64,000 nt of DNA from Syntrophorhabdaceae bacterium (GCA_963665295.1 OY762209.1:3392001-3456000); one strand, 5' to 3'. Counted from the stretch's first letter, positions 7,496-50,554 are shown. Notes: a model not told the origin generated them from the letters alone. Program-made: numbers and translations.

Positions 7496-7535
7496 CAGAT
7501 GGCTTCCCGCGCCGGACCGATATCAGGGGGCGACA

Positions 7536-20413: not shown

Positions 20414-20424
20414 TTTTGAGGAAT

Positions 20425-22116: not shown

Positions 22117-22122
22117 TTTGCC

Positions 22123-25026: not shown

Positions 25027-25284
25027 ATGTGTTATGTTTAAGAAAAGACGCGGACCGCAGCCACCGGGCACAAAGGGCTCGGGATTTTGACAAAGCTGGG
25101 ACGGTCCATTCCGGAAAGAAGGCTTTACACGCATCCCGACTGCGGGAGGTCGGGATCGGGCCTGGTATGAGGGGCAACGGTGCAGGTTGAAGCGGGAACC
25201 TGGGCCCGGCCGCGGGCGAGGCGAAACTACCTGAATAGGGGAGAGGCTTTCCGGGAGTCTCAAGGCATTCCAAGGGAGGGTTCA

Positions 25285-29525: not shown

Positions 29526-29526
29526 A
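28225..29526 (+). CDS. dctM: TRAP large permease
   Basis: 433 aa; VPLFVLMG, IPPS, FTPTEAG and PPV motifs. Confidence 0.94.
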   Translation: MDEITVGIVGIVVLLGLFLTGIELAFAMAIIGVAGYAIVVGPGPAMNILANDFYDALESYSLTVVPLFVLMGQIAFNAGIAKRLYDSAHRFLGHIPGGLAMATVAGATVFKAICGSQVATCATFASVAVPEMDRFNYSKKLSTGIVATVGTLGVLIPPSVILIILGIITQQSIGKLFMAGVIPGLMLAFFFLVVIFGWARINPTIGPACEPFSWKERVATLPAVIWPIVIFCVMIGGLMKGFFTPTEAGSVGTFAVLLLCLVKKDINFQGLKRSILEALRTSCMVLLIVASSSVLGHFVAVTNIPDIVAQWVVTLPLNRHIIMSIIFIVYLVGGSFIDDLAFMILATPIFFPAILSMGYDPIWACIMVSLTVCVGSVIPPVAMCVFVVKNITKVPMSIIYSGVYPFLISLIICIILFFIFPQLILYLPGVFMS

Positions 29527-29573
29527 GGGGGTACGGGATTTCTTGAAAAGACTGCTTCAATAGTGAATAGGGC

Positions 29574-29620
29574 AACAGAAAGGGCCCCCGGCGTGTGAAC
29601 GCCGGGGGCCCTTTCTGTTT
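29574..29620. terminator. Rho-independent terminator (21-bp stem)
   Basis: aacagaaagggcccccggcgt-gtga-acgccgggggccctttctgtt followed by further T. Confidence 0.8.
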
Positions 29621-29832
29621 ATATACCGACCTCGGAAGAGGGGTCTATTCTGGGGCGGTAGGACAGGTGGCGGGAAAGACACGTGCTCATAGGGGACAAA
29701 AGTGTGTCGAAGGGGCACATGCGGGGAACGAGTCCGGGGCGGACGGTCCGTTTATTACTCGGTTTATGAAATGGCCCTGAATTTGCTATGCTTTTTTACA
29801 AGCGACAACAAATACATTTTCAAGGGGGTATT

Positions 29833-32689: not shown

Positions 32690-32690
32690 G
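31389..32690 (+). CDS. dctM: TRAP large permease (identical to 28225..29526)
   Basis: Identical translation. Confidence 0.94.
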   Translation: MDEITVGIVGIVVLLGLFLTGIELAFAMAIIGVAGYAIVVGPGPAMNILANDFYDALESYSLTVVPLFVLMGQIAFNAGIAKRLYDSAHRFLGHIPGGLAMATVAGATVFKAICGSQVATCATFASVAVPEMDRFNYSKKLSTGIVATVGTLGVLIPPSVILIILGIITQQSIGKLFMAGVIPGLMLAFFFLVVIFGWARINPTIGPACEPFSWKERVATLPAVIWPIVIFCVMIGGLMKGFFTPTEAGSVGTFAVLLLCLVKKDINFQGLKRSILEALRTSCMVLLIVASSSVLGHFVAVTNIPDIVAQWVVTLPLNRHIIMSIIFIVYLVGGSFIDDLAFMILATPIFFPAILSMGYDPIWACIMVSLTVCVGSVIPPVAMCVFVVKNITKVPMSIIYSGVYPFLISLIICIILFFIFPQLILYLPGVFMS

Positions 32691-34645: not shown

Positions 34646-35242
34646 TTATTTGAGGATGCCCGCGAGAACGATGTTTCTGTAAGTCAACGCAAACTGAACG
34701 CCGTCGATATTGTCATAGTTGCCGTACCACTCCAGAAGGCTGCCGTCGTGGATGGCGTTTATGGCATGGGCTGCGAGATCGATGTCGATGTCATCCTTTA
34801 CGACGTCCTCCTTCCTGCCCAGTTCGAGGAGTCTCCTGTAAAAGGCGCGGTGTTTCTCTTTTATGGCCCGGATCTTCTCCTCTATCTTTGTTCCACTGCC
34901 CACCATCTCGGCGGCGATGGTCGTGAAGCCAACGCAGAGATCCTTGTTATTGAGTGCGAATTCGGTAGCATACTTATGGCTGTACTTGATCTTGGAGAGG
35001 AAGCCCCCTTTCGCGCGCAATACCGATTCCATGTGTTGATCCACAAACAGGAGTTCATATCGCTCTACAATGGTTTCAAGGAGTTCGTCTTTGCTTGCGA
35101 AGTGCCAGTAGAACGCCCCCTTGCTCACACCCACGGCATCTGTGATGTCGCTGATGGTGGTGGCGTTAAAGCCTTTGCGAAGAAAGAGTTTTATGCCTTC
35201 GCTTATTATTCCTTCCCGTTTTGGCGCCTTCTCGTTTCTCAT
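34646..35242 (-). CDS. TetR/AcrR family transcriptional regulator
   Basis: LFLRKGFNATTISDITDAVGVSKGAFYWHFASKDEL HTH. Confidence 0.95.
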   Translation of the reverse strand: MRNEKAPKREGIISEGIKLFLRKGFNATTISDITDAVGVSKGAFYWHFASKDELLETIVERYELLFVDQHMESVLRAKGGFLSKIKYSHKYATEFALNNKDLCVGFTTIAAEMVGSGTKIEEKIRAIKEKHRAFYRRLLELGRKEDVVKDDIDIDLAAHAINAIHDGSLLEWYGNYDNIDGVQFALTYRNIVLAGILK

Positions 35243-35261: not shown

Positions 35262-35320
35262 CTAAACCGACCGGTTAGTTAAGACGGTAAGCTTTTAGCA
35301 CGACCTAAAATGGTTGTCAA
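35262..35320 (-). promoter_or_regulatory. tetR promoter with downstream operator-like site
   Basis: TTGACA (35320-35315), 17 bp, TGn-TAAAAG; site TTAACTAACCGGTCGGTTTAG at 35282-35262. Confidence 0.6.
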
Positions 35321-35575
35321 GAAAAAAAGCGAGACAATTTGCCTGACAGAATGGTGCGATCGGGCGCCGTGAAGTGTTCTCCCTGTTATGTAAGGAAAGG
35401 GAATGGCTGTATCCTATTTATACACCGGTATACATATGGCCCAGGGAGCTGAACAAAAAAAGAACGTTATTTCTGAGTGTTACAGGCCTGCACTCCATGG
35501 TATGCATATTGCAATTCTCCCTACAGGTGACCGAAAGTGTACAGATACAGGATTTCATGTGTGCGACAAAGAGTA

Positions 35576-35622
35576 TTGACAAAGTCAGCACATTTTGGTT
35601 TATTAACTAAACGGTAGGTTAA
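35576..35622 (+). promoter_or_regulatory. Promoter of the etf-hdr operon with overlapping operator-like site
   Basis: TTGACA (35576-81), 17 bp, TGn-TTTATT; site TTAACTAAACGGTAGGTTAA at 35603-35622. Confidence 0.6.
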
Positions 35623-35673: not shown

Positions 35674-36768
35674 ATGGTTAGTCAAAGCCAGACCAGGGTA
35701 TTAACCTGCATCCAGTGTGGAAAATGCACAGGGGGCTGCCCTGAATCGGGACGAACTCCTTTCAATGTCCGTATGCTCGTAAGAAAAACACAATTCAAGC
35801 AGGCCATAAACGAATCACTTCCCTGGTATTGTACTTCCTGCGGGGCTTGCACACTCAGATGTCCCCGGGACATAAAGCCTTCCGAAGTGGTTATCGAACT
35901 GCGGTCCGCCTTTGTCGAGGACGGAGAGATACCCGTGTCTATCCAGAAGGCCCTGGAAAACACCTTTGTCCAGAAGAACCCTTGGGGGCGTTCGCGGGCG
36001 AAGAGGGGCGCATGGGCGGATAAGCTCGATTTCGAGGTACCTCACGTCAGCGAGACGAAGTCAAAAAGGCTGCTCTTTACATGCTGCATACAGGCTTATG
36101 ATCCCCGCTGCATGGTCATACCGGCGAATGTGGCGCGGTTGCTCAACCGCGGAGGTTTCGAATTCGGAGTCCTTGGTGAAGAAGAGGCTTGCTGCGGTAA
36201 CGAGATAAGGCGTATCGGCGAGTCGGGTCTTTTTGAAGAACTTCAGGAAGAAAACATTGCAACCTTTCAGGAATATGGGGTAGAGGAGATTATCGCCCTG
36301 TCGCCCCACTGCATGAATACCCTGAAAAAGGAATACGGAGAACTGGGGATAAAGGTATCTCACTATACGGAGATTGTGGCGCGCATGATCCGGGAAGGGT
36401 CCATCGTCCCGAAGGCGCCTTATGAGAAGAAAGTGATATACCATGATCCCTGCTTTCTCGGCAAACAGAACGGTGTCTTTGATGAACCGAGGAGTATCCT
36501 TACGGCAATAGACGGTCTTGACCTCCTTGAGTTTTCAAGGGCGAGGGAAATATCCCTGTGCTGTGAGGGGGGAGGGGGAAGGATGTTTTATGAGGCTGAA
36601 ACAACGTATGAAAGAAACAGCGAGGTAAGGGTGTCGGAGGCGTTGGAAAAAGGGGCGGAAATAATCGCGACGAGTTGCCCCTTCTGTGTGATGACTCTCG
36701 AGGACCCGGCCACCGAGAAAGGATTGCTGGTACGGGAAATATCCGAGATACTTACGGAGGTTTTATAA
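35674..36768 (+). CDS. Soluble Fe-S oxidoreductase with 2x[4Fe-4S] and two CCG domains (HdrD/HdrF/DUF224-like, no TM domain)
   Basis: CIQCGKCTGGCP, CTSCGACTLRCP, EACCG, SPHC, YHDPC, LCCEGGGG and SCPFC motifs. Confidence 0.88.
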   Translation: MVSQSQTRVLTCIQCGKCTGGCPESGRTPFNVRMLVRKTQFKQAINESLPWYCTSCGACTLRCPRDIKPSEVVIELRSAFVEDGEIPVSIQKALENTFVQKNPWGRSRAKRGAWADKLDFEVPHVSETKSKRLLFTCCIQAYDPRCMVIPANVARLLNRGGFEFGVLGEEEACCGNEIRRIGESGLFEELQEENIATFQEYGVEEIIALSPHCMNTLKKEYGELGIKVSHYTEIVARMIREGSIVPKAPYEKKVIYHDPCFLGKQNGVFDEPRSILTAIDGLDLLEFSRAREISLCCEGGGGRMFYEAETTYERNSEVRVSEALEKGAEIIATSCPFCVMTLEDPATEKGLLVREISEILTEVL

Positions 36769-36769
36769 T

Positions 36770-37549
36770 ATGAATCTATTAGTGTTCACGAAAAGAGTAC
36801 CTGCTACCCAGGAAGAGGAAATACGGATTATTGATGACGGCAAGGGAATCGATCTCTCGAAAGTGCCGTTCAAGGTGAACGACTGGGACAATTATTCTGT
36901 TGAAGCGGCTGTCCAGATCGCGGAGAAGACCGGAGGTTCCGTAACGGCCGTCTCCATAGGAGATGCGGAATCCGACGAAGTTCTGAGACGGGCCATCGCC
37001 ATGGGCGCAAAGGACGGGTCCCTCATTGAGGTGGAGAAGGTCCTCCATGATCCGGGCGCAAGGGCGACCCTGGCGCACAACTTCCTGAAGAAGGAAAACA
37101 TACCTTTCGACATGATCTTCACGGGGGTACAGTCCGAAGACGATCAGTTTGCTGCTGTCGGCGGCATTCTTGCCGCGAAACTGGGCCTGCCTTATGTCTC
37201 CATGGTCATTGGTATCGACGCCGTTGAAAAGGACCATGCGATTTTGAGAAGGGAACTCGAAGGAGGGCTTCAGGAACGGGTCAAAGTGACGCTGCCTGCG
37301 ATTCTTTCCATTCAGAGCGGGATTAACGAACCACGCTATGTCTCCATTATGGGCGTGAGGAAAGCGTCCAAGGTGGAGCGAAAGTTCTACAAGGCGAAAG
37401 AGTATGAAGATGGGCTCCAGAGCCTTATTGAAGTCGCGAAATGGGTTTACCCTCCGAAGAAGGGAGGGGCGCAAATGCTGGCGGGCGAACTCGACGTGGT
37501 GTGCAAAGACCTGCTTGGAATTCTGAAAGAAAAGGGGGTATGGCAATGA
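36770..37549 (+). CDS. etfB: Electron transfer flavoprotein beta subunit
   Basis: KRVP, AIAMGA, GVQSEDD, RELEGG and NEPRY motifs. Confidence 0.95.
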   Translation: MNLLVFTKRVPATQEEEIRIIDDGKGIDLSKVPFKVNDWDNYSVEAAVQIAEKTGGSVTAVSIGDAESDEVLRRAIAMGAKDGSLIEVEKVLHDPGARATLAHNFLKKENIPFDMIFTGVQSEDDQFAAVGGILAAKLGLPYVSMVIGIDAVEKDHAILRRELEGGLQERVKVTLPAILSIQSGINEPRYVSIMGVRKASKVERKFYKAKEYEDGLQSLIEVAKWVYPPKKGGAQMLAGELDVVCKDLLGILKEKGVWQ

Positions 37550-38484
37550 GCTATGCACTGGTTGTGGCCGAAGTAAGGCGTGGTGTTTTCGAAGAGAGAA
37601 ACCTGGATGCCATCGGTATCAGCAACGTCCTCGAAAAGGACAGTGTTCTCCTCATCCCCGAAGGCACTTACGATGTCAACAGGAAACTGATCAATTCCAT
37701 GGTGAACGTGAAGGTGGCGGAGGAAATATTCCTCAACCCCCTGAATATGGTTGATGTGATAAAGAAGGTCATGGATTCGAAGGGCAAACCGGACACGATA
37801 GTCTTTACGCATTCATCGGCCGGCACGGACCTTGCCTCCTATGTGGCGGGATGGTTCAACTTGCCCCTCATTACGGATGTGAACGGATTCGACAAGGAAC
37901 GGGGTATCTTTTACAAGAGCTATTACTCCGACAAGATATTCGGCGAATTTAAGACCCTCGCTGAAGGCCCCTTCGCGGTGACGGTGCGGAGTGGAAGCTT
38001 CAAGGACTTCGCTCTTGAAAAAGGTCAGTCCGCCGCGGAAGAAACGCTGGACGGCATCGCGGTGAGCGAGTCGAGGACCTTCGTGGGCTATGTGGAAGAA
38101 GAAAAGACGGAGATCGATATCACCAAGGCGGAATTCCTCCTGTCGGTGGGAAGAGGCATAGGAAACAAGGATGAGATACCTGACTACGAAGAACTGGCTG
38201 CGCTCTTAAGAGCGGTCCTTTCAGGGTCGAGGCCGGTGATCGACAAGACATGGCTCCCCAAGGCGAGACAGGTAGGAACGTCGGGGAAGACGGTCAAACC
38301 CAAGGTCTACCTGGCCATGGGTATAAGCGGCGCGTTTCAGCATATTGCGGGCATGAAGGACTCGGATTGTATCATCGCGGTGAACAAAGACCCGGAAGCG
38401 CCCATTTTCCAGTATGCCCATTATGGCATTGTGGGAGATATGCATAAGGTCCGGGACAAACTGAAAGACATAGTAAAGGGATGA
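37546..38484 (+). CDS. etfA: Electron transfer flavoprotein alpha subunit
   Basis: SVGRG, SRP, QVGTSGKTVKP, GISGAFQH and AVNKDPEAPIF motifs; ATGA overlap with etfB. Confidence 0.95.
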   Translation: MSYALVVAEVRRGVFEERNLDAIGISNVLEKDSVLLIPEGTYDVNRKLINSMVNVKVAEEIFLNPLNMVDVIKKVMDSKGKPDTIVFTHSSAGTDLASYVAGWFNLPLITDVNGFDKERGIFYKSYYSDKIFGEFKTLAEGPFAVTVRSGSFKDFALEKGQSAAEETLDGIAVSESRTFVGYVEEEKTEIDITKAEFLLSVGRGIGNKDEIPDYEELAALLRAVLSGSRPVIDKTWLPKARQVGTSGKTVKPKVYLAMGISGAFQHIAGMKDSDCIIAVNKDPEAPIFQYAHYGIVGDMHKVRDKLKDIVKG

Positions 38485-41195
38485 TGACGGAACAGGAAGA
38501 AAAGGTAAAACGGGTTCTCGTAGTGGGCGGGGGAATAGGCGGCATCACTGCCGCCCTTGAGATCGCGTCATGCGGCGTGGACGTGACCATGCTCGAAGAG
38601 GGGCCCTCCATAGGCGGAAGGATGATCCAACTGGACAAGACCTTCCCCACCCTTGACTGCTCGACTTGCACTCTTTCGCCAAAGATGGTGGAGGTGGCTC
38701 TCCAGAAGAAGATAGAACTTCTCTCGTGGGCAAAGCCGGTGGCGGTCAGGAAAGAAGGCAAGGGCTTTGCGGTCACGGTTCTCAAGAAATCACGCTATGT
38801 GGACATAAGCAAGTGCACTGCCTGCGGAAGTTGTTCTCCGTGGTGCCCCGTAGTGATGAAGAGCGAGTTCAACATGGGCACCGGCCCGAGAAAAGCGGTC
38901 TATATTCCCTTTCCACAGGCCATACCCAACAAGGCGAGTATCGACAAGCGGGAAGACAGGCCCTGCAAAGCTGCATGTGTCGATGCGTGCCCCGTACGCA
39001 CTAACGTGCTCGGATACCTGAAACATATCAGTGAGGGAAGGTTCAGCGACGCTTACATGCTGATCAGAGAAACAAATCCTTTCCCCTCGGCTTGCGGCAG
39101 GGTGTGCTATGCGCCTTGCGAAAAGGTGTGTAACAGGGGGCAGATGGACGACCCCCTGGCGATCCGCGATCTTAAGCGGTTTGCCGTTGACTCCTTTGAC
39201 CCCGCTTCCCTGGAGACGCCCCAGGTGCAAGGAACGGAACGGAAAGTGGCGGTTATCGGCGCGGGGCCGGCAGGGCTCGCGTGCGCCCACGATCTTGCCA
39301 TGGAAGGGCATGACGTGACGGTTTACGAGGCACTCCCCGAGCCGGGCGGGATGCTCCGGTACGCAATTCCGGAATACCGTCTGCCGAAGGCGGAACTGAG
39401 GGCGGAGATCGGTTTCATCGAGAGACTCGGGGTTACGATTAAATGTGGTGTGGAGATCGGCAAAGAGGTGACCCTCGATGTCTTGAAGAGTGATTACGAA
39501 GCGGTGTTTATCGGTACCGGCGCTCCGAAGGGGCTGGGGCTCGGCGTGGAAGGAGAAGACCTTGCCGGCATAATGGACGGCATCAGGTTCCTCCGGGCGA
39601 TAAATACGGGCGAGACAATAGCGATAGGAAAGCATGTGGCCGTCATCGGCGGAGGCAATACCGCGGTGGACTGCGCGAGGACTGCAAAGCGACTTGGCAG
39701 CGAGTCGGTGAAGCTCGTTTACCGTCGTACTCGCGAGGAAATGCCTGCCGCGGACGAGGAGATAGAAGCCCTTCTGCATGAGGGAGTGGAGATCGAGTTT
39801 CTTTCAGCCCCGGTGTGTTTTTTCGGCACGAACGGCAAGCTGGCTGAGATGGAATGTATTCGCATGGAGTTGGGAGACGCGGATTCGAGTGGAAGAAGAC
39901 GTCCGGTTCCCGTCAAAGGCTCAGAGTTCAAATTGCCTGTCGACAGCGTCATCACCGCCCTCGGGCAGGCAACGGATACGTCTTTTACCGGTACTGCCGG
40001 GGTGTCGCTCGGTAAAGGCGACACTATCGTGATTGATGCCGCCACGGGAGCCACCAATATTGAGGGCATTTTTGCCGGGGGTGATGTGACTACAGGGCCT
40101 GCCTATGTGGTCGATGCGATCGCCGCGGGAAAAAAGGGCGCCCGCTCCATAAGCAAGTACCTTAAAGGGGAACCGGTGACTGCCGAGGAGGCCGGGCAAA
40201 AGCCGGAACAGCTTTCAGAGACGGAGTTGGCTGTGGTGGTGAAAAGATTTCCGAAGGCAGAACGGCTCGCCATGCCCGAGGAGCCTGTCGAAGAGAGGGT
40301 GACTGATTTTCGTGAAGTGGCGACGGGCTACCGGCCGGAGGACGCAATGAAGGAGGCGTCCCGTTGCCTTGCAGGGCAGATCGAGGGATGCATCCAGTGT
40401 GGAGAGTGCGAGAGGCGTTGCGAGGTAAATGCCGTGCATTACGACATGGAGAATGAGATCGTGGAGATGGCCTTTGACAGCATAGTCCTTGCGCCCGGAT
40501 TCGACCTCTATGATCCGACGGAGAAGAGGGAATATGGTTATGGCGTTCTTGAGGGCGTGATAAGCGGAATAGAGTTCGAAAGGATCTGCTCGGTTACAGG
40601 ACCCACAGGTGGAGATATTCTTGTGAATGGAAAGACGCCGAAGCGGTTCTTCTTCATTCAATGCGTAGGATCGAGAGACCGTCAGAGCGGGGCCCGTTAC
40701 TGTTCCAGGGTATGCTGCATGTACACCGCGAAGCACGCAAGCATTGTGAAAGACAGGATCGCCGGAGCGGAGATATATGTTTCATATATCGATGTGAGGG
40801 CCTACGGCAAAAACTATGAAGAGTTCTATAAGAGCACGCAGGAAAGCGGTACGTATTATATAAGGGGAATTCCGGGAGAGGTATCTAAAGGAGAAAACGG
40901 GCTCATAGTGAGGGTGGAGGACATGCTGAGCGGCGAACTGCGTGAGGTTGAGGCGGACCTCGTTATACTCGCCACAGGGGTGAGGCCGCGTAAGCAAACC
41001 GCGGAACTCTGCGATATAATGTCCATCGAGAGAGATGAGTACGGATTTATCAAGGTAGATTCCGTGAGCCCTTCAAAGACGAACGTGGACGGTATTTTTG
41101 TGTGCGGCATGGCTTCCGGGCCCAAGGACGTACCCGATACCGTTGCCTCGGGCGGAGAGGCCGCGTCACGGTGCATGGAGTATATAAGCGAATGA
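38481..41195 (+). CDS. HdrL-type protein: HdrA core with an inserted GltD/NfnB-like NAD(P)H-binding module
   Basis: GGGIGG and KTFPTLDCSTC; inserted CGRVC..PCE, GAGPAG, GGGNTAVD and YRR; then QCVGSRD...YCSRVCCMY. Confidence 0.88.
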   Translation: MMTEQEEKVKRVLVVGGGIGGITAALEIASCGVDVTMLEEGPSIGGRMIQLDKTFPTLDCSTCTLSPKMVEVALQKKIELLSWAKPVAVRKEGKGFAVTVLKKSRYVDISKCTACGSCSPWCPVVMKSEFNMGTGPRKAVYIPFPQAIPNKASIDKREDRPCKAACVDACPVRTNVLGYLKHISEGRFSDAYMLIRETNPFPSACGRVCYAPCEKVCNRGQMDDPLAIRDLKRFAVDSFDPASLETPQVQGTERKVAVIGAGPAGLACAHDLAMEGHDVTVYEALPEPGGMLRYAIPEYRLPKAELRAEIGFIERLGVTIKCGVEIGKEVTLDVLKSDYEAVFIGTGAPKGLGLGVEGEDLAGIMDGIRFLRAINTGETIAIGKHVAVIGGGNTAVDCARTAKRLGSESVKLVYRRTREEMPAADEEIEALLHEGVEIEFLSAPVCFFGTNGKLAEMECIRMELGDADSSGRRRPVPVKGSEFKLPVDSVITALGQATDTSFTGTAGVSLGKGDTIVIDAATGATNIEGIFAGGDVTTGPAYVVDAIAAGKKGARSISKYLKGEPVTAEEAGQKPEQLSETELAVVVKRFPKAERLAMPEEPVEERVTDFREVATGYRPEDAMKEASRCLAGQIEGCIQCGECERRCEVNAVHYDMENEIVEMAFDSIVLAPGFDLYDPTEKREYGYGVLEGVISGIEFERICSVTGPTGGDILVNGKTPKRFFFIQCVGSRDRQSGARYCSRVCCMYTAKHASIVKDRIAGAEIYVSYIDVRAYGKNYEEFYKSTQESGTYYIRGIPGEVSKGENGLIVRVEDMLSGELREVEADLVILATGVRPRKQTAELCDIMSIERDEYGFIKVDSVSPSKTNVDGIFVCGMASGPKDVPDTVASGGEAASRCMEYISE

Positions 41196-41274
41196 CAGGC
41201 AACGAACTCTTAAAACATCATAGGCCCATTGTGACGCATTGGACCTATAGAACCAATCAGGCGGGGAACTTAAC

Positions 41275-42948
41275 GTGAAAACCGGTATATTTATCTGCCA
41301 TTGCGGACACAATATCAAGCACACGGTAGATGTGAAGAAGGTAAGTCAGTTTTTTAAGGTGTTTCCCAGCGTGATCGTCTCGGAGGACTACCCCTTCGTC
41401 TGCTCCGAGCCGGGCCAGGACATGATCCACGAGAGCATCGAAAAATACGGTCTCGACCGCGTCATCATTGCGTCATGTACGCCTTCGCTCCACGGGGAAT
41501 TGTTCAAGGACCTGTTGAAGAAGTCCAACCTGAACCCCTTTCTCCTGAGGAGAGTGGGCATAAGGGAACACTGCTCGTGGGTTGGAGACGACGTAGAGAA
41601 GAATACGGCAAAGGCGATAAAGCTGATAAAAGCGGGGCTTTATGCGTCATCCCATTATGTTCCCCTGGAAGAAAAGATGGTGGACGTGACGAAGTCGGCC
41701 CTGATTATAGGGGGTGGTGTCTCCGGTTTGAGCGCAGCCCTTTTCCTTTCGAAGATGGGGATGCAGGTATTCCTTGTGGAGAAGGGGGCGGAGCTTGGCG
41801 GTCATGTGAGAACCCTTAAGGATATATGGCCCATCAGACAGGATGGCAAGGCCGTTATCGACGGCATGGTGAGCGAACTTGAGACCCGGGAAAACGTGGA
41901 GATCTTCACGTCGACCACTGTGAGCGCTTTTGAAGGCTTCTTCGGAAATTACGAGGCGACCCTCGACACCCCGTCCGGGCAGAGAAAGGTAATAGCCGGC
42001 GGGATTATCGTGTCGATAGGTTTTTCGCCCTTTGACCCTCGCGTGATACCCGAGCTGAATTACGGCAAAGACGAGAGGATCATGACCACTATCGAGTTCG
42101 AAAAGAGGAAGGATGCGCTGGGCCTTCCCGAGAACCCGAGGATTGCAGTGCTCCACTGCGTGGGGTCACGGAACGAACAACTGGGGAGACCTTACTGTTC
42201 GAGGGTCTGCTGCATAAACGCACTCAGGGTGGGGGATGCAATAAAGGACAAATACAAGGAATCCTATGTGGAATCCTTTTACATGGATGTGAGGGCCCAT
42301 CCGCGGGGCGGCGAGGAATTTTTCGAGGATACCCAGGAAAAAGGTGTTCTCTTCACGCGAAGCAACGTTGCGGAGATTGTCCCCGGTCCGGGAGGGTTGA
42401 CGATACGGGGTGAGGATACGCTGTTCGGAGAACCCTTTGAGAGGGAGTTCGATGCCGCAGTGCTCTCTGTCGGAATGTCGCCGCCGGCCGATAGCCAGTC
42501 TATCGCCTCGCTCCTCAAGATTACCCTCGATAAGGATAAGTTTTTCCTCGAAGCCCATATCAAGCTCCGTCCTTTCGATACCGCGGTAAAGGGAATCTTC
42601 ATCGCCGGCTCATGTTCGGGCCCCAAGGATATGGAGGAGTCGATCAACCATGGCAGGGCATCGGCATTAAAGCTCTTCGGGTTCCTGAACCTGGGCTATG
42701 CCTTTGTCGACCCCTTTATCTCGTGGGTTGACCCCAAGAGGTGCAGCGGATGCAGGATGTGTGAAAAAGCATGCGTTGCAAAGGCGATAAAGTATGACGA
42801 GGAAAAGAGGATCGTCCACGTTGAGGAAGCGGCGTGCATGGGATGCGGACTTTGTAACGCCACATGCCCGTCTTCGTCCGTAAGCCTCAAGGGGCATATG
42901 GACAGTTACATTGACGACGAGATCGGCGCCCTTACGGAGGCGATGTGA
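41275..42948 (+). CDS. hdrA: Heterodisulfide reductase subunit A-like protein
   Basis: GIFICHCG, ASCTP, REHCSW, GGGVSG, HCVGSRN..YCSRVCC and a C-terminal 2x[4Fe-4S] ferredoxin. Confidence 0.9.
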   Translation: MKTGIFICHCGHNIKHTVDVKKVSQFFKVFPSVIVSEDYPFVCSEPGQDMIHESIEKYGLDRVIIASCTPSLHGELFKDLLKKSNLNPFLLRRVGIREHCSWVGDDVEKNTAKAIKLIKAGLYASSHYVPLEEKMVDVTKSALIIGGGVSGLSAALFLSKMGMQVFLVEKGAELGGHVRTLKDIWPIRQDGKAVIDGMVSELETRENVEIFTSTTVSAFEGFFGNYEATLDTPSGQRKVIAGGIIVSIGFSPFDPRVIPELNYGKDERIMTTIEFEKRKDALGLPENPRIAVLHCVGSRNEQLGRPYCSRVCCINALRVGDAIKDKYKESYVESFYMDVRAHPRGGEEFFEDTQEKGVLFTRSNVAEIVPGPGGLTIRGEDTLFGEPFEREFDAAVLSVGMSPPADSQSIASLLKITLDKDKFFLEAHIKLRPFDTAVKGIFIAGSCSGPKDMEESINHGRASALKLFGFLNLGYAFVDPFISWVDPKRCSGCRMCEKACVAKAIKYDEEKRIVHVEEAACMGCGLCNATCPSSSVSLKGHMDSYIDDEIGALTEAM

Positions 42949-43005
42949 AAACAAGGGTTGCAGGTGGAAATAATCCGGACCGCGACTCAATTATTTGGAG
43001 GAAAG

Positions 43006-43425
43006 ATGTCGGAAGACAAGGCTGAAAAGAACCCGGAAATCATAGGTTTCGCATGTTCTTTTTGTACATTCAAGGCTTCTGAAATGGCGGGGAGTCTGAG
43101 GATGAAATACCCCGACGGGGTGAAGCTGGTTCAGGTCCCCTGTTCGAGCAGGGTCGATCCCGCCTTTGTCATCAAGTCGATCTTTGACGGAGCGGACGGC
43201 GTCTTTGTGGCGGGCTGCCACCCGGGGGACTGCCACTTCATTAAAGGCAACTATTTTACGCGAAGAAAGATCGCCGCCCTGAAAGAGATGCTGGATGCTT
43301 TTTCGATGAAAGACAAACTTCGTCTCTTCTGGGTGAGCGCTGCCGAGGCACGGCGTTTTGTGGAGAAGGTTTCAGGAATGTATAACGAGATAAAGGAAAA
43401 GAAAAATGCAGGGAAAACAAATTAA
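43006..43425 (+). CDS. mvhD: MvhD-like [2Fe-2S] subunit
   Basis: GFACSFC, VPCSSRVDP, GADGVFVAGCHPGDCHF and WVSAAE motifs; RBS ggagg. Confidence 0.92.
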   Translation: MSEDKAEKNPEIIGFACSFCTFKASEMAGSLRMKYPDGVKLVQVPCSSRVDPAFVIKSIFDGADGVFVAGCHPGDCHFIKGNYFTRRKIAALKEMLDAFSMKDKLRLFWVSAAEARRFVEKVSGMYNEIKEKKNAGKTN

Positions 43426-44419
43426 GAACGGCAATATCGAGAGCGCCCTTAATCGGTTTCTGGAGCAGGATGAACAACGTCTGGTTCTCGGTTACGAAAA
43501 GGGTGAAAACGATGTACGCCATCGCATATTCAAAGGAAATCTCGAACATTTCTCTTTGCTGAACCCCTTTTTCGGTGTTAACGGTGCGGTCTATCTGCGC
43601 CGGTTATTCTCAAAGGGAACGGGGATTATTCTCATGCTGAGACCCTGCGAGATAAGGGCGTACAATGAATTGATCAAATTGAACCAGATTGAGCGCGCGG
43701 GCATCACGGCCGTTTCGATTGACTGTTTCGGGGCAGTATCCCTAAAAGACAATACCGCGGAAATACCGACGGAAGCAGGCGAGTTGAAGGAATACTTCAA
43801 GGGATCGGACAATATGCGCTGGGCATGCCGGGTATGCAGGGAAAGGAGAGGTGTGGTCGGGGACGCGGGCATCAGAATCGACAAGGAAGGCAAATTCTGG
43901 GCCTTCTCCTACACGGAGAAGGGAGATGCGTTTCTTTCCCTTATCGAGGGCGAGCCCGAGGAAAGCGGCGCCGGGATGCTTCTGGAAGAGTCTCCTAAAA
44001 CGGACAAGTTCGCCACCGACATGGAACAATTTTCCAAGGACTTTTCAAAGTGCATCATGTGCAAGAACTGCAGGGATATGTGTCCTGTCTGTTATTGTGT
44101 GGATTGTGTATTCAACGGCGACGAATATCTGCCGAAGGGCGACGCACTTCTCAATAAGATCTTCCGCACAGGTTCCACGGACATGCCCCAAGGGAAAGAG
44201 CTTTTTCACATGGTCAGAATGTACCATGTATCCCAGGTTTGTGTGGGGTGCGGAGCGTGCGAGGAGGCGTGCCCCCAGGGCATTCCCCTTTCCAAGTATT
44301 TCAAGGGGATTTCGGAAAGACTCCAGGGCATGTTCTCCTATATGTCGGGAAGGAGTCTCGACGAAGACATACCTTACCTTACATTTCTTGAGGATGAATT
44401 GAAAGATGCAGAAGATTGA
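43406..44419 (+). CDS. FdhB/FrhB-like Fe-S protein
   Basis: LRPCEIRA, IDC.G, RWACRVC, CIMCKNCRDMCPVCYCVDC and CVGCGACEEACP motifs. Confidence 0.78.
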   Translation: MQGKQIKNGNIESALNRFLEQDEQRLVLGYEKGENDVRHRIFKGNLEHFSLLNPFFGVNGAVYLRRLFSKGTGIILMLRPCEIRAYNELIKLNQIERAGITAVSIDCFGAVSLKDNTAEIPTEAGELKEYFKGSDNMRWACRVCRERRGVVGDAGIRIDKEGKFWAFSYTEKGDAFLSLIEGEPEESGAGMLLEESPKTDKFATDMEQFSKDFSKCIMCKNCRDMCPVCYCVDCVFNGDEYLPKGDALLNKIFRTGSTDMPQGKELFHMVRMYHVSQVCVGCGACEEACPQGIPLSKYFKGISERLQGMFSYMSGRSLDEDIPYLTFLEDELKDAED

Positions 44420-44864
44420 TAAGATCATAGAGCTCGCAGGGCACAAAAAGGAAGACCTTTCGGTCTGCATGGGATGCAAGGTCTGCGCGTCGGTCTGTAC
44501 GGTGAACGACCTCGACATTGCCATGAACCCCCAGGAACTCCTTGTCCGTCTGTTTCTGGGAGAGGAAATAGAAAAGGACCATCCTCTTGTCCGTTACTGC
44601 ACGAGTTGCTACCGCTGTACGGGGGCGTGTCCGTGGAAGATACGGATACCGGAGGTGGTGAGAGCCTTGCGGGAGTCCCTCGACGTGGCGTCCCCCTTTG
44701 AGAAGGCGTTTAAGGGGTCCCTCAAGATTTGGGGAAGGGTTTACGAGCCTTATGTGTTTCTTATGTCGGTCTCCTTTCTGCTAAAGGAAGGCTATGTGAA
44801 ACATATGCCGAAATGGACGGAGTACATGAGCTTTCATCTGCCCCACAAAGTGAAGAGGACTTGA
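44406..44864 (+). CDS. hdrC: HdrC-like 2x[4Fe-4S] subunit
   Basis: CMGCKVCASVC and CTSCYRCTGACP motifs; lies upstream of hdrB. Confidence 0.82.
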   Translation: MQKIDKIIELAGHKKEDLSVCMGCKVCASVCTVNDLDIAMNPQELLVRLFLGEEIEKDHPLVRYCTSCYRCTGACPWKIRIPEVVRALRESLDVASPFEKAFKGSLKIWGRVYEPYVFLMSVSFLLKEGYVKHMPKWTEYMSFHLPHKVKRT

Positions 44865-44865
44865 C

Positions 44866-45546
44866 ATGGATTACGGATATTACCCAGGCTGTTCCCTGAC
44901 GGGTTCGGCTCGTAAGCTCGATAAAGGTGTAAAAGAGGTATTCAAGAAATTGGGACACCGTCTTACGGAGATCCCGGACTGGAACTGCTGCGGCGCCCTG
45001 GAATACGGAGACCGGAACGAACTGGTGGCGCTTTCCAAAGAAAACCTGAGGAAAGCCGAAGGGATGTGCAAGGAGATCGTGGCACCTTGCCCCGCGTGTT
45101 ACAAAAACCTCAAGGACGCGAATTCCGATGACAGGTTTACCATACTCAATCCCCTTGAGCTCCTTGATAAGGAAGTGCTCTCTTCCATCAACGCCAAGCG
45201 CGATCTGAAGGGAAAGGTCTTTACTCCCTATTACGGATGCGTCCTTTTGCGCCCTGAGGGAACGGCCATCAAGAATAAGAATGTAATGGAAGATCTGATC
45301 ACACACTTTGGCGGCGAGATCGAAGGCGAGAAGGTCAAGGACAGGTGTTGCGGCGGCAACCAGTTTTTTGCCAATAAATGGGCTACGGAGAAACTTTCAG
45401 GTTTGATCATCGATAAGTCGAAGGGGACCATCGTGGTATTCTGCCCCCTCTGCGAGATGGCGCTGAAGACCTTCTCGACGGGCAGGAAGATCATTTATCT
45501 CACGGACCTTGTACTCTATATCATGGGAGAGAATAACGTAATATGA
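44866..45546 (+). CDS. hdrB: HdrB-like CCG-domain subunit (short, 226 aa)
   Basis: YYPGCSL, DWNCCG, PCPAC, YYGC.LLRP, RCCG and FCPLC motifs. Confidence 0.87.
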   Translation: MDYGYYPGCSLTGSARKLDKGVKEVFKKLGHRLTEIPDWNCCGALEYGDRNELVALSKENLRKAEGMCKEIVAPCPACYKNLKDANSDDRFTILNPLELLDKEVLSSINAKRDLKGKVFTPYYGCVLLRPEGTAIKNKNVMEDLITHFGGEIEGEKVKDRCCGGNQFFANKWATEKLSGLIIDKSKGTIVVFCPLCEMALKTFSTGRKIIYLTDLVLYIMGENNVI

Positions 45547-47285
45547 ACGTACTCATAGTAGGCGGCGGTATAAGCGGCATATCTGCCGCAAAGGTTGCCC
45601 TGAAAGAAGGCCACGAGGTTACGATCCTCGAGTCCTCGCCGGAGCCGGGCGGCCTCATGGCCCGTATCGCAAACTGCAGGGTTGGGTTCACCACTTTTTT
45701 TGACGAGATACGTGATAATCCCGGACTTACGGTTATCAGGGAAAGTGTGATTACGAGTGTCGAGAAGAAAAACGGCGTGTTCGCCGTAACCCTGGCAAAC
45801 GGAAAATCCCTCGATGCGGACAAGGTGATAATCGCGGCGGGTCTGAGCCCTTACGATCCTGTCCAGTATAAGGGGAAAAGGGTGGTCACGAGTCTCGAGT
45901 ATGACGCTCTTATCGATCAGCGCAACGGCGAGCTTCCTTCGGATTTCAACAAGGTGGCCTTTGTGCTCTGTGTCGGCTCGCGTTGCGAGGAATACCCCCT
46001 CTGCTCGTCGGTCTGCTGTTCCTACACGATACGGGAGATCAAATGGACGCTTCAGAGAGCGAAACCGGATATAAAGGTTTTTTATAACGACCTTCGTTTC
46101 TTCGGACAGGAGTTTTATCTGGAGAAGATTTACAGGGATGCGGGTGTTGCTTTTGTCAGGGCAAATTCCCGGTATTTCGATGAAGACGAGACAGGTGTCA
46201 ACGTGCGGTACTATACGGACGGAGAGCTTAAAGAGGAACGGTTTGACTACGTAGTCCTCGCCATCGGGCTTCGTCCGAATCCCGAGCTACAGCGCTTGAG
46301 CGCGCTTTTCGGATTCAGCCTGAATGAGTTCGGGTTTGTGAGGGAAAAGGAGCCTTTAACCACGGACGTTGAAGGCGTCTATGTTTCGGGTGGAGCTCTT
46401 GAGCCCATGAACATAAAGGATTCCATCCTTACCGGATTTGGCGCCGGCGTGCGCGCGACCAGGGATGCAGGCTTTTCCGTGGAAGCAGCGCGAAACCGTG
46501 AAAAGCTCTATAGAGAGCCCGAGCCTGAAATTGCAGTCTCTGATGAAGGGTCTTCATGCCTTTTTTACATAGGCACGGAAGACGCAGGGTCTGCCATATT
46601 TTACGAGTATATATCATCCAAATTTATCGCCCTGGCGCGATATCTCAAGAAGGCAGGGAAGACGGTTTATGTGACCACGAAGAACATGGTTACGCCCTCT
46701 TACGCCGAAGTCGCCTATGAGGCGGCAAGAAGAGAGGGCATTATCTTTATTCACCTTGAAGAAGGGGAGCGCATAGACTTCGAGGAAGGCAAGGCACGCA
46801 TATCAGGGCTGAAAAGAAATATGACCCTGGCAGTCGATAAGGTAATCCGGTTTGAAGACTATGCCGCCTTTTTCAATGATAAGGAATTCCTTTCGCTTTA
46901 CAGATCTGAGCCTCAGCTCAGATGGTCACCTACAAAATGGGGCAGGAAGAAGTACCACGTGGGTTTTATCAGACATCCCCGGGCCGAGAGATGGGAGCCG
47001 AGAGAGGTTTTTGGCGCCCTTGGGGAAATGATTCTCGACCTGGAAGAGGAAAGGGTGCTGCCGCAGGTAAACGAAGAAAGATGCAGCGGTTGCGGTTCCT
47101 GTAAGGATGCGTGCCCTCATAGCGCTATTGAACTGGAGATAAGAGAACGAGGTATAGCCGTCTTCGGGCTTCAGGCGGCGTCCAGTGTGCCCATTGCTCA
47201 TGTAAAAGAAGACGAGTGTGCAGGTTGCGGTTTGTGCGCTTCCACATGCCCGTCCGATGTGATCAGCTATCCCGAAGTAAGGTAA
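45543..47285 (+). CDS. Third HdrA-like flavoprotein with a degenerate second module and C-terminal ferredoxin
   Basis: GGGISG, LCVGSR...CSSVCC, CSGCGSCKDACP and CAGCGLCASTCP motifs. Confidence 0.82.
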   Translation: MNVLIVGGGISGISAAKVALKEGHEVTILESSPEPGGLMARIANCRVGFTTFFDEIRDNPGLTVIRESVITSVEKKNGVFAVTLANGKSLDADKVIIAAGLSPYDPVQYKGKRVVTSLEYDALIDQRNGELPSDFNKVAFVLCVGSRCEEYPLCSSVCCSYTIREIKWTLQRAKPDIKVFYNDLRFFGQEFYLEKIYRDAGVAFVRANSRYFDEDETGVNVRYYTDGELKEERFDYVVLAIGLRPNPELQRLSALFGFSLNEFGFVREKEPLTTDVEGVYVSGGALEPMNIKDSILTGFGAGVRATRDAGFSVEAARNREKLYREPEPEIAVSDEGSSCLFYIGTEDAGSAIFYEYISSKFIALARYLKKAGKTVYVTTKNMVTPSYAEVAYEAARREGIIFIHLEEGERIDFEEGKARISGLKRNMTLAVDKVIRFEDYAAFFNDKEFLSLYRSEPQLRWSPTKWGRKKYHVGFIRHPRAERWEPREVFGALGEMILDLEEERVLPQVNEERCSGCGSCKDACPHSAIELEIRERGIAVFGLQAASSVPIAHVKEDECAGCGLCASTCPSDVISYPEVR

Positions 47286-47730: not shown

Positions 47731-48762
47731 ATGAAAAGATCAACATGGATGATCGGTTGTCTCATGGTATGCGCATTACTGTTTTTATTCCTCGTCCCCC
47801 TTCAGAGCCACGCGGCGGAGAAGGTAATCACCCTTAAGGTAGCCAACTGGTTCCCTATCACCCACAAGCAGAGCATCCTCCTCGATGCGTGGGGCAAGGA
47901 AGTGGAGAAGAAGACGGGGGGCAAGGTAAAGGTCAACTACTATGCCGCAGGCACCCTCGTGCCCGCTGCCCAGAGCTATGACGCGGTCACCAAGGGTATC
48001 GCCGATGTAGGCAACCACGTCCTCGGATACACGGTAGGGAAGTTCCCCTTGACGGAGATCATCGACCTCCCCCTGGGCTACCCCAACAACACGGTTCCCA
48101 CCAAGATGGCCAATGCCTTCTACGGCAAGTTCAAACCGAAAGAGTTCGATGAGGTGAAGGTCCTCTGGTTCCACGCCCAGGCCCCCGGCATCGTCCACAC
48201 GAAGTCAAAACCCGTCCACAAACTCGAGGACCTGAAGGGCCTCAAGATGAGGACCTACGGCTCCAATGCGAAGCTCATGGGACTTCTGGGAGGAACCCCC
48301 GTGGCAATGCCCATGACCGATGTGTATGACGCCCTTTCGAGAGGCGTAGCCGACGGCGTCATGGCCGCATACGAGGCACTGGAAGGCTTCAGGCTCGGAG
48401 AGCAGGTGAAGTACTCCACGGAGAACTACGACACCTCCTACAGCGCCACCTTCGTGGTCGTCATGAACAAGAGAAAATGGAACGCCCTTCCCCCGGACGT
48501 GCAGAAGGTGATCGACGGGATGAGCCCCGAGTATATCGAGAAGTACGCCGCCATGTGGGATGACATCGAAAAGAGCGGCAAGGAATACTGCATCAAGAAA
48601 GGCAACAAGATCATCACCCTCGACAAAGCCGAACAAGCCAAGTGGGTGGCCAAGGCCGAACCTCTCTTCGATGACTACGTGAAGAGGATGAAGGCAAAGA
48701 ACCTGCCGGGCGACGAAGCGCTGAAGTTCGTCCGCGATTACTTAAAACCCTACAAAAAGTAA
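47731..48762 (+). CDS. dctP: TRAP substrate-binding protein, third paralog
   Basis: Signal peptide, KGLKMR and PVAMPMTDVYDALSRG. Confidence 0.93.
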   Translation: MKRSTWMIGCLMVCALLFLFLVPLQSHAAEKVITLKVANWFPITHKQSILLDAWGKEVEKKTGGKVKVNYYAAGTLVPAAQSYDAVTKGIADVGNHVLGYTVGKFPLTEIIDLPLGYPNNTVPTKMANAFYGKFKPKEFDEVKVLWFHAQAPGIVHTKSKPVHKLEDLKGLKMRTYGSNAKLMGLLGGTPVAMPMTDVYDALSRGVADGVMAAYEALEGFRLGEQVKYSTENYDTSYSATFVVVMNKRKWNALPPDVQKVIDGMSPEYIEKYAAMWDDIEKSGKEYCIKKGNKIITLDKAEQAKWVAKAEPLFDDYVKRMKAKNLPGDEALKFVRDYLKPYKK

Positions 48763-48777
48763 TATCCGGGAGGAGAA

Positions 48778-49260
48778 ATGCAGGTATTTCACTCGGTGGT
48801 TTTGAGAGTCGGCAAGGTGATGGACGTGATCGGGGGGACCGTCCTTACCCTGATGATGCTTATCACCGTGCTGGACGTGGTCCTCCGGCTCTTCCGGAAG
48901 CCCATTACCGGCACGTATGAACTGGTTTTCCTGGGAGGCGCGGTGGTAATCGGATGCGCCATCCCCATCACTTCATGGGAGGGAGGACACGTGTGCGTCG
49001 ACTTTCTGCTCGAACACTTCTCTCCCATGGCGAAGAAGGTCATCATGCTCCTCACGAGGCTCCTGGGCATCGCGTTCTTTCTCCTTCTCGCATGCAACCT
49101 CTTCCTCCTCGGGACCGATCTCTTCACGTCCGGAGAGGTGTCGCTCACGCTGCACGTGCCCTACTACCCCGCTGCCTATATCCTCGCGCTCTGCGCTTTC
49201 GTGGAGTGCCTCGTGCTCGTGTCGTCCTTTATAAAGATTATCGGGGGAGATCATGAATGA
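48778..49260 (+). CDS. dctQ: TRAP small permease
   Basis: Paralog of 27744..28232. Confidence 0.92.
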   Translation: MQVFHSVVLRVGKVMDVIGGTVLTLMMLITVLDVVLRLFRKPITGTYELVFLGGAVVIGCAIPITSWEGGHVCVDFLLEHFSPMAKKVIMLLTRLLGIAFFLLLACNLFLLGTDLFTSGEVSLTLHVPYYPAAYILALCAFVECLVLVSSFIKIIGGDHE

Positions 49261-50554
49261 GACCGTCGTAGGAGTCATCGTACTCTGTCTGTTATTGGGG
49301 CTGTTTCTCACGGGTATCGAACTCGCCTTTGCCATGGGCATTCTCGGGGTGGCGGGGTTTGCCTACCTCGTGGACGTGCCGGCTGCCATGGGTCTCATGG
49401 CGAACGACTTTTTCGATGCCCTCGCATCATACGGGCTCACGGTCATCCCGCTCTTCGTACTCATGGGCCAGATCGCCTTCAACGCGGGTATCGCGAAGAG
49501 GCTCTATGACTGCGCCCACAGGTTCTTAGGCCACATCCCCGGGGGCCTCGCCATCGCCACGGTGGCAGGGGCAACGGCCTTCAAGGCCATCTGCGGCTCC
49601 GTGGCAGCCACATCAGCCACCTTTGCGAGTGTGGCCGTGCCCGAGATGACAAAATACGGGTATGACAAGAAGCTCTCCACAGGGATCGTGGCCACAGTGG
49701 GCACCCTGGGCTGTCTTATCCCCCCGAGTGTGGTCCTCATCATATTCGGTATCGTGACCCAGCAGTCCATAGGGAGGCTCTTTCTCGCGGGCATCCTCCC
49801 CGGGCTCCTTATCGCATTCTTCTTTGTCGTGGTCATCTTCGGCTGGTGCAGGATAAACCCCAAGCTGGGCCCGAAGTGCGAGCCCTTCACCTGGGGCGAG
49901 AGAATGAAAACGGTGCCCGACGTCATATGGCCCATCGGCATCTTCCTCGTCATTATCGTGGGAATGATGAAGGGGTTCTTTACCCCCACGGAAGCAGGGA
50001 GTATCGGGGCCTTCTCGGTCCTCGTGCTCTGCATCGCCAAAAAGAACATGAACTTCAAGGGATATGTGAAGTCCGTGAAGGAGTCCCTCAGGACCGCGTG
50101 TATGGTCCTTCTTCTCATTGCCACATCGAGCATGCTCGGGCACTTCATCGCAGTGACGAACATACCCAGCCGCCTCGGCGAATGGACCTTAAGCCTCACG
50201 CTCCCGTCCTTTGTCGTGGTGGTCATGATATTCTTTATCTACCTCCTGGGCGGGTCGTTCATCGACGACCTGGCGTTTATGATCCTCGCCACGCCCATAT
50301 TCTTCCCCATCATCACGAAACTCGGGTATGACCCCCTCTGGGCAGGCATTGTCATCGCCCTTACCGTCTGCATAGGGTCCGTGGTCCCGCCCGTGGCGAT
50401 CTGCGTTTTCATTGTGAGGAACATTACGAAGGTACCCATGGGGGTCATCTATTCCGGGGTCTACCCCTTTCTCATCTCCCTGGTCCTCGTGGTGGTGCTC
50501 TGTTTTCTCTTTCCCCAGATCGCCCTGTTTTTGCCTAATCTGCTTATGCCGTAG
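49253..50554 (+). CDS. dctM: TRAP large permease
   Basis: 433-aa paralog of 28225..29526. Confidence 0.94.
   Translation: MNETVVGVIVLCLLLGLFLTGIELAFAMGILGVAGFAYLVDVPAAMGLMANDFFDALASYGLTVIPLFVLMGQIAFNAGIAKRLYDCAHRFLGHIPGGLAIATVAGATAFKAICGSVAATSATFASVAVPEMTKYGYDKKLSTGIVATVGTLGCLIPPSVVLIIFGIVTQQSIGRLFLAGILPGLLIAFFFVVVIFGWCRINPKLGPKCEPFTWGERMKTVPDVIWPIGIFLVIIVGMMKGFFTPTEAGSIGAFSVLVLCIAKKNMNFKGYVKSVKESLRTACMVLLLIATSSMLGHFIAVTNIPSRLGEWTLSLTLPSFVVVVMIFFIYLLGGSFIDDLAFMILATPIFFPIITKLGYDPLWAGIVIALTVCIGSVVPPVAICVFIVRNITKVPMGVIYSGVYPFLISLVLVVVLCFLFPQIALFLPNLLMP

Follow-up and report, generated by a model that had tools for sequence, protein, structure and literature searches.

Electrons from acyl-CoA oxidation are released at about −10 mV, and the known answer to their disposal is a membrane loop driven by quinone and the proton gradient. 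Could soluble proteins also do this job? The question is raised by a ten-gene operon at positions 35674..47285 of a 64,000-nucleotide stretch of a Syntrophorhabdaceae bacterium genome (GCA_963665295.1, OY762209.1:3392001-3456000; hereafter, the window). The operon encodes an electron-transferring flavoprotein (ETF) together with proteins related to heterodisulfide reductase (Hdr), and we consider it highly probable that it specifies a soluble ETF-linked HdrA-type unit of some kind. Our preferred reading, for which we see about an even chance, is that the unit would re-oxidize the ETF by confurcation: ETF electrons would be joined with those of NADPH or ferredoxin and delivered to an acceptor of intermediate potential, probably a disulfide.

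A soluble operon with one predicted bifurcation site

The operon consists of ten open reading frames (ORFs), all on one strand, with gene names that agree with Pfam and NCBIfam scans:

35674..36768, plus strand: hdrD-like, soluble Fe-S protein with two cubanes and two CCG domains, of the type of BamD and of ETF:(methyl)menaquinone oxidoreductase (EMO)
36770..37549, plus strand: etfB, likely of the non-bifurcating type; best PDB match 1O94
37546..38484, plus strand: etfA (PF00766, PF01012)
38481..41195, plus strand: hdrL, HdrA core with a GltD/NfnB-type NADP(H) module inside the inserted ferredoxin
41275..42948, plus strand: hdrA, N-terminal cluster domain, FAD core of non-bifurcating type, C-terminal ferredoxin
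42958..43425, plus strand: mvhD, MvhD/FlxD [2Fe-2S] adaptor (PF02662); start probably at 43006
43406..44419, plus strand: fdhB/flxC-like polyferredoxin; PDB matches FdhB/ElpB
44406..44864, plus strand: hdrC, ligands kept
44866..45546, plus strand: hdrB, compact; ten non-cubane cluster Cys, PDB HdrB matches
45543..47285, plus strand: hdrA', FAD/[4Fe-4S] core, second alpha/beta domain, C-terminal ferredoxin

The intergenic gaps are, in order, +1, −4, −4, +79, +9, −20, −14, +1, and −4 nt, the hdrA-mvhD gap being 57 nt instead of 9 if MvhD begins at the ATG at 43006, and purine-rich ribosome-binding sites precede the genes. A Kyte-Doolittle scan detected no membrane helix in seven of the ten proteins and a single weak hydropathy peak (1.66-1.69), located at nucleotide-binding strands, in each of EtfB, HdrL, and HdrA; as a control, the same scan returned five helices for each of the two EMO proteins of this genome. 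Family scans of the ten ORFs found no hydrogenase, formate dehydrogenase (Fdh) catalytic subunit, or FlxA, and likewise no FlxB. An earlier note on the window, made from its sequence alone, had described ten mostly coupled genes under these names, with no transmembrane protein and no hydrogenase, Fdh catalytic subunit, or FlxA, and this description holds.

HdrL and HdrA are complementary, as had also been noted. In HdrL, the N- and C-terminal HdrA domains are missing, but a cysteine loop (C60 and C63) and the inserted ferredoxin are present; HdrA, conversely, has the N-terminal cluster and the C-terminal ferredoxin and neither loop nor insert. The full HdrA domain set (N-terminal cluster, core cluster, loop, both ferredoxins, and MvhD) is obtained only from HdrL, HdrA, and MvhD jointly, and HdrL plus HdrA are collinear, end to end, with a 1466-aa fused protein of the same genome. 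In the published description of BamE of class II benzoyl-CoA reductase (BCRII), two HdrA units are fused into one dimeric chain, in which the FAD at Lys280 is the bifurcating one and that at Gln768 is not (bioRxiv 10.64898/2026.04.10.717634). The BamE-like ORF of our genome has Lys and Gln at the same 488-residue spacing; mapped through this ORF, the Gln768 position is Asn315 in HdrA (34/34) and Tyr in HdrL (35/35). We aligned the three HdrA cores of the operon with the methanogen HdrA structure 5ODC. HdrL has K751 (Lys409 of 5ODC), E700 (Glu356), and Y748 in all 35 rows and both loop cysteines in 34 of them. At the Lys409 position, HdrA (residue 318) shows Arg in 28 of the 34 rows and Lys in the other 6, and HdrA' has Arg in 39/39. 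The lysine at FAD N5 combined with the Glu356 equivalent, which marks an HdrA-type bifurcating flavoprotein, was thus found throughout the rows of HdrL only. From the collinearity with the fusion and the residues at the Lys and Gln positions, we infer that HdrL and HdrA are a BamE-like dimer divided between two genes, whose single bifurcating FAD would be that of HdrL. Since only HdrL keeps the lysine, one bifurcation site is expected and not three, and a reading with three bifurcating modules was rejected.

Three arms would lead from this dimer, based on homology to BCRII and methanogen Hdr. The high-potential arm would run from the FAD through the core cluster, HdrD, and ETF to an acyl-CoA dehydrogenase (ACAD). 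The HdrD-like protein has the soluble part of EtfD/EMO 9OJN as its best PDB match (E 1.6e-58) and is 38.5% identical to the BamD-like proteins of the genome and 31% to its EMOs. Alignment to 9OJN and the BamD-like protein places S210 and H212 (28/28) at the distal cluster site, i.e., the Cys-to-Ser change and the site-blocking His of BamD and EMO. BamD is reported to bind ETF in situ, in cells (bioRxiv 10.64898/2026.04.10.717634), and HdrD is likely a docking site for ETF of the BamD/EMO type. HdrD also has extra cysteines at residues 137 and 146, invariant in 28/28 orthologues of the order, missing from BamD and EMO and mostly missing outside the order; they possibly provide an extra ligand or a disulfide. 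EtfB matched 1O94 with E 6e-34 and CarD/LctB with E about 1e-22, and its beta-FAD-binding loop aligns with 1O94, not with the loop of the bifurcating CarD/LctB. We take 1O94 to be a non-bifurcating ETF and presume that the loop carries the same meaning here; judged by these features, the ETF of the operon looks non-bifurcating.

The low-potential arm would be the inserted ferredoxin of HdrL with its NADP(H) module; this ferredoxin is described as the low-potential output in BamE and HdrA (bioRxiv 10.64898/2026.04.10.717634). In HdrL, it is split at about residues 160-630 by a GltD/NfnB-type module with a two-cluster domain, two Rossmann folds, and a Tyr-Arg-Arg phosphate site. The best PDB matches of the insert are 9BOV, 9N5U, and 8OH5. 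Tyr414-Arg415-Arg416 aligns with Nfn-type NADPH enzymes, bearing out the NADP(H)-type motif proposed earlier, and the cluster cysteines and Tyr-Arg-Arg are kept in all 31 of 35 rows that have the insert, which would be specific for NADP(H). The insert is missing in 3/38 genome loci and 8/40 metagenome loci; there, a plain ferredoxin port would therefore remain.

The mid-potential arm would lead from the C-terminal ferredoxin of HdrA to MvhD, which has five Cys in 30/30 rows, and on to the FdhB-like protein, which is 26% identical to the FlxC-position protein of the genome with all 15 Cys common to both and whose predicted structure is poor in the Fe-S half (mean predicted local distance difference test [pLDDT] 71). 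HdrC and HdrB keep all ligands, including the ten Cys for two non-cubane clusters in HdrB (38/38), a candidate disulfide site. The HdrA' model (pLDDT 84) comprises an HdrA core, a cysteine-free second alpha/beta domain, and a ferredoxin, and its closest fold match is sHdrA 6TJR of sulfur oxidizers. HdrA'-HdrC-HdrB would plug into the mid-potential arm; this docking, the identity of the disulfide, and the way electrons flow in vivo are the most speculative parts of the proposal. DsrC as the disulfide partner of HdrB is not supported in this genome, in which the sole DsrC-family match resembles TusE: it has a single terminal Cys and sits in a sulfur-relay setting.

Conservation and known relatives

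To survey synteny, 44 genome loci were fetched, from which we set aside one distant Chloroflexota arrangement, one duplicate, and four cut by contig ends. All ten genes were present in identical order in 38/38 distinct loci long enough to hold them, which exceeds chance; one of these loci comes from a record titled Spirochaetes. An HdrA' orthologue (full-length or split, 53-79% identity) was detected in 55/60 relatives from four families of the order Syntrophorhabdales. Among 300 sampled genomes of the phylum, with four candidates scored per genome, it was found in 9/10 genomes of three families of the order and in 1/290 others. A metagenome search keyed on the FdhB-like gene returned 80 loci, of which 40 span etfA-hdrL-hdrA in order, two carry a truncated hdrA and no ETF part, and the remainder are short. 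The loci of both searches are kin, some of them near-duplicates, and do not count as independent cases. The operon is a near-universal single-locus trait of the order (55/60). We rejected the idea that it divides neatly at the 79-nt gap, as the two ETF-less loci (L095, L098) carry the truncated hdrA instead. The flanks vary; among those listed, no fdhA, flxA, or flxB adjoins the operon, and an ACAD gene lies directly upstream in 14 of the 48 loci with room for one.

We then turned to EtfB matches with E <= 1e-55 in 19 sampled genomes outside the three order families and examined all 20 places. ACAD, soluble hdrD, etfBA, and hdrL occur together in 12 of these; one more has etfBA-ACAD-hdrL-hdrA and is cut upstream before hdrD, three are cut after hdrD-etfB, three carry a membrane EMO in the place of hdrD, and one is without such a neighbor. 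An ACAD gene stands beside the ETF in 19/20. The link of the operon to ACADs made in the earlier note is supported by these relatives. In the window itself, the ACAD genes (23851-26430) do not belong to the operon: 9 kb separate them from its 5' end, and a duplicated TRAP operon and two genes on the opposite strand lie between. Several outside loci are flanked by thiolase-like, hydroxyacyl-CoA-dehydrogenase-like, and acyl-CoA mutase genes, i.e., a beta-oxidation context, the first two names being read from sequence starts only.

The third module of the outside loci varies. It consists of NuoE/HydB/NuoG-like genes in five loci of one family and of a second HdrA-MvhD-FdhB-HdrC-HdrB set in two (L157, L163); four have no third module nearby (L159, L160, L164, L169). 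In the five loci (L158, L167, L170, L171, L173), the genes encode ACAD, HdrD, NuoE/HydB/NuoG-like proteins, EtfBA, ACAD, HdrL with a shortened insert, and HdrA; this arrangement resembles BCRII minus the tungsten subunits, and acyl-CoA mutase genes adjoin. A formate dehydrogenase considered for this family was rejected, the tblastn match being NuoG-like and below the Fdh cut-off. An ACAD-hdrD-etfBA-hdrL-hdrA core thus recurs across families of the phylum with swapped third modules. Because the same ETF subtype follows either soluble hdrD or membrane EMO, the HdrD plus HdrA pair appears to be an alternative to EMO, and the outside loci are the strongest sign that it may substitute for EMO with the same ETF.

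The HdrA-HdrD-ETF link has one characterized precedent, BCRII BamDEF with the ETF BamOP of Geobacter metallireducens (bioRxiv 10.64898/2026.04.10.717634). The two have in common an HdrA dimer with one bifurcating and one non-bifurcating FAD (predicted for the operon), an MvhD-type adaptor, a soluble HdrBC/HdrD-like subunit whose distal cluster is altered and which serves as ETF dock (likely so here), and a cytoplasmic location. They differ in that the dimer is split here over two genes, the low-potential arm carries an NADP(H) module, the operon has its own etfBA, and FdhB-like, HdrC, HdrB, and HdrA' proteins are added. W-pterin BamB and BamC are encoded not in the operon but at two other loci of the genome, and the BamGHI (HydBC-type) input is likewise not in the operon, its counterpart being the NuoE/HydB/NuoG-like set of the one outside family.

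The last seven genes match by gene content the described cluster Sfum_0819-0824 of Syntrophobacter fumaroxidans, in which HdrL, MvhD without MvhA, an FdhB-like protein, and HdrABC are adjacent; that cluster was seen by proteomics, and its function is called speculative (PMC5947623). Desulfobacterium autotrophicum has tandem hdrL/hdrA with mvhD and fdhB (PMC2702500). The available descriptions of these clusters mention no hdrD-etfBA module. EMO, also called EtfD or HdrF, has an HdrD-like soluble part and the same etfBA/ACAD context (bioRxiv 10.64898/2026.08.18.745454; PMC13083937; PDB 9OJN); the operon, in contrast, has no five-helix heme-b membrane domain and no quinone but an HdrA pair instead. 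FlxABCD-HdrABC (Hdr-Ifo) likewise has HdrA, HdrB, HdrC, MvhD/FlxD, and a FlxC-like polyferredoxin (as cited in PMC6687939 and PMC5736913) but includes the FlxA NADH dehydrogenase and FlxB, which the operon lacks. Bcd-EtfAB, CarCDE, and LctBCD also couple an ETF-level couple to low- and mid-potential carriers in solution (PMC5861303); in the operon, by contrast, electron splitting would fall to the HdrA flavin, the ETF being of non-bifurcating appearance. Neither the ten-gene set nor the ACAD-hdrD-etfBA-hdrL-hdrA core is described in the literature searched, and we found no biochemical characterization of this composition, in agreement with the earlier note, although an earlier bioinformatic mention is possible. 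Seven of the ten genes do repeat a published cluster type. The operon thus appears to encode a variant of HdrA-type bifurcating complexes, made of known parts in an uncharacterized combination.

The genome has further loci of these kinds. BamD/E/F/G/H-like ORFs with identical blast scores occur in two Bam-type loci (C1:4700000-4713000 and C1:5383000-5395000), in which the BamB/C-like ORFs differ; the bamE-like gene reads as two ORFs, with a selenocysteine codon as a possible cause of the break. There is also a third locus of the HdrA-dimer/MvhD/HydBC type, at C1:2581082-2588050, which has no bamB. Two mvhD genes are orphans with no hdr gene beside them, one at C1:3257502-3257945 (84% identical to the operon MvhD) and one at C1:2684931-2685383. 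At C1:4680681-4689170 (L049), hdrC-hdrB-fused hdrL/hdrA-mvhD are followed by a MetF-like gene and a likely MetV gene, i.e., a Moorella-type methylene-tetrahydrofolate reductase cluster with an added GltD-type module.

Direction of electron flow and the membrane route

The ten proteins likely form one complex. We propose that they would assemble into one HdrA-type electron-bifurcating machine, in which ACAD-derived ETF electrons would be paired with NADPH electrons (ferredoxin electrons where the insert is missing) and passed on to a mid-potential acceptor, for which a disulfide at HdrB is the probable candidate. For an ETF potential of −10 to +16 mV, the computed mean donor potential is −150 to −190 mV with NADPH at its in vivo potential and −200 to −255 mV with ferredoxin. 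Confurcation therefore suits a disulfide-level acceptor and not syntrophic H2/formate at −290 mV, which it could reach only through an additional step. Run in reverse, the reaction is downhill for every donor whose potential lies under this mean.

Several observations weigh against confurcation as the exit for ETF electrons. It spends NADPH or ferredoxin and cannot reach H2/formate directly; in BCRII, ETF is the acceptor and not the donor (bioRxiv 10.64898/2026.04.10.717634); we found no two-cysteine DsrC in this genome to supply the disulfide, and no Rnf; no ACAD lies within the operon here, and few loci have one directly upstream; and outside lineages lack the HdrA'-HdrC-HdrB part or have a replacement for it. 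A membrane route is also available. Orthologues of the 673-aa membrane EMO of this genome are present in 59 of the 61 genomes of the order, all drafts; 47/61 combine a completeness of at least 90% with a contamination of no more than 5%. Outside the order, 5/5 genomes tested have an EMO-like membrane domain. This genome has futalosine menaquinone genes and MenA/MqnP-like prenyltransferases, and UbiA-family prenyltransferase genes are present in 60/61 order genomes.

The idea that no membrane route is available is thus ruled out, and the need for a membrane-free route implied by the earlier note is not supported. This genome can do without the soluble route, given its two EMO-type genes (three histidines occupy the heme positions in one of them), the futalosine genes, and other ETF/Hdr loci, namely three Fix-like ETF loci, one Flx-Hdr cluster with FlxA and FlxB (C1:3871530-3878331), and the two Bam loci. 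Across the order, MqnA/D was found in only 6/61 genomes and MenD above the cut-off in 0/61, and MqnA/D was found in 0/5 outside genomes with the core; this scarcity speaks for the soluble route. From so few ring-synthesis genes together with the widespread UbiA genes, it follows that most members scavenge quinone precursors or are without quinones. The order-wide EMO gene (C1:4071165-4073186; L046) is solitary, and its counterparts in five relatives (L058-L062) have no etfBA or ACAD neighbors; solitary EMO genes occur in genomes mostly without menaquinone ring synthesis.

The strongest alternative, which we rate as unlikely, is that the complex runs in the BCRII direction, splitting electrons from a mid-potential donor (thiols, NADH, or formate via a trans partner) to NADPH or reduced ferredoxin and to reduced ETF, which would then hand its electrons to the membrane EMO or to an ACAD acting as enoyl-CoA reductase. 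ETF as acceptor at BamD has been demonstrated (bioRxiv 10.64898/2026.04.10.717634), the EMO belongs to the core genes of the order, electrons from donors below about −190 mV would flow downhill this way, a HydB-GltD fusion in the hydrogenase/Fdh cluster of the genome could spend the NADPH, and one outside family has a NuoE/HydB/NuoG-like input, as in BCRII. Such a direction would, however, raise the ETF burden of an acyl-CoA oxidizer, menaquinone ring synthesis is not seen in most order genomes, and hdrD occupies the place of EMO before the same etfBA. Since the sole characterized HdrA-HdrD-ETF system reduces ETF, the earlier note overstated ETF oxidation as the direction. Its overall interpretation is supported in part.

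It is improbable, in our judgment, that the operon specifies two linked but separate units, HdrD-EtfBA-HdrL-HdrA-MvhD-FdhB-like with a trans partner (cytoplasmic FdhA, FlxAB, or MetFV) and HdrA'-HdrC-HdrB as a stand-alone non-bifurcating thiol/disulfide oxidoreductase. The ten genes stay together, coupled, across four families, and the flanks listed offer no adjoining fdhA, flxA, or flxB, even though the core occurs without HdrA'-HdrC-HdrB outside the order, the HdrA' fold is nearest to sHdrA, and the genome has orphan cytoplasmic FdhA genes, the full Flx-Hdr cluster, and the HdrL-MetF locus; some hdr loci of D. autotrophicum are also described as having fdhB followed by fdhA (PMC2702500). An uncoupled wire from NADPH or thiols to ETF, for NADPH-driven enoyl-CoA reduction or redox buffering, is very improbable given that HdrL keeps Lys, Glu, Tyr, and both loop Cys in nearly all rows and that MvhD and the N-terminal cluster domain are intact, despite the lysine missing from two of three HdrA cores, the non-bifurcating look of the ETF, and the caution in a review that HdrABC homologues alone are insufficient to infer bifurcation.

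Promoter region, surroundings, and significance

Upstream of the operon, we identified the following:

35498..35512, plus strand: sigma-54-type −24/−12 promoter, 176 nt before the first gene
35603..35620, plus strand: 18-nt box, likely a TetR operator, with a near copy at 35265-35282
34646..35242, minus strand: divergent TetR-family regulator gene, from the family scan

The sigma-54 consensus, a −24/−12 pattern, is present in 25/44 distinct upstream regions (200 shuffles: mean 0.2, maximum 2). Scans for sigma-70 promoters and terminators gave chance-level results (8 vs 9.4 and 13 vs 13.7, respectively). The sole other near copy of the 18-nt box genome-wide (two mismatches), at 35265-35282, lies before tetR, and the box is likely the operator of this divergent TetR, whose gene is not kept beside the operon in most relatives. 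A PAS sensor kinase and a sigma-54 response regulator at 20386-23469 precede two ACAD genes; homologues of this regulator lie directly 5' of the Hdr operon in four loci (L025, L027, L039, L043), and a regulator of this type is a candidate activator of the sigma-54 promoter.

Elsewhere in the window, a tandem duplicate TRAP operon, dctP-dctQ-dctM (26666-32690), is 92% identical over 2.9 kb, with DctQ and DctM the same at the protein level, and a third, diverged TRAP operon lies 3' of the Hdr cluster (47731-50554). Genes at 425-8561 encode two phosphoenolpyruvate-utilizer mobile-domain proteins, a stand-alone pyruvate phosphate dikinase N-terminal domain, and a CoA-ligase-like protein, a set similar to genes of the phenylphosphate-synthase type. 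A DDE transposase is inserted after an AMP-binding gene at 52585-54279.

Electron disposal from acyl-CoA oxidation is the hardest step in syntrophic breakdown of fatty acids and aromatics. If confurcation by the operon is true, it would be a soluble, HdrA-based second solution, in which an HdrA flavin would take the role played in other systems by bifurcating ETFs. More broadly, though we rate this as rather unlikely, the loci could represent an unrecognized family of quinone-free ETF oxidoreductases with this operon as its type member, in which an ACAD-HdrD-EtfBA-split-HdrA core would replace EMO by flavin confurcation, would carry low-potential (NADPH/ferredoxin) and mid-potential (HdrA'CB, HydBC/NuoG, or second Hdr) modules that are swapped among several families of the phylum, and would be the main exit for acyl-CoA electrons in menaquinone-less syntrophs. 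The natural variants, with and without the NADPH insert and with three kinds of mid-potential module, make the wiring directly testable. The order is important among the waste-digesting anaerobes of digesters, and most of its genomes are without detected menaquinone ring synthesis.

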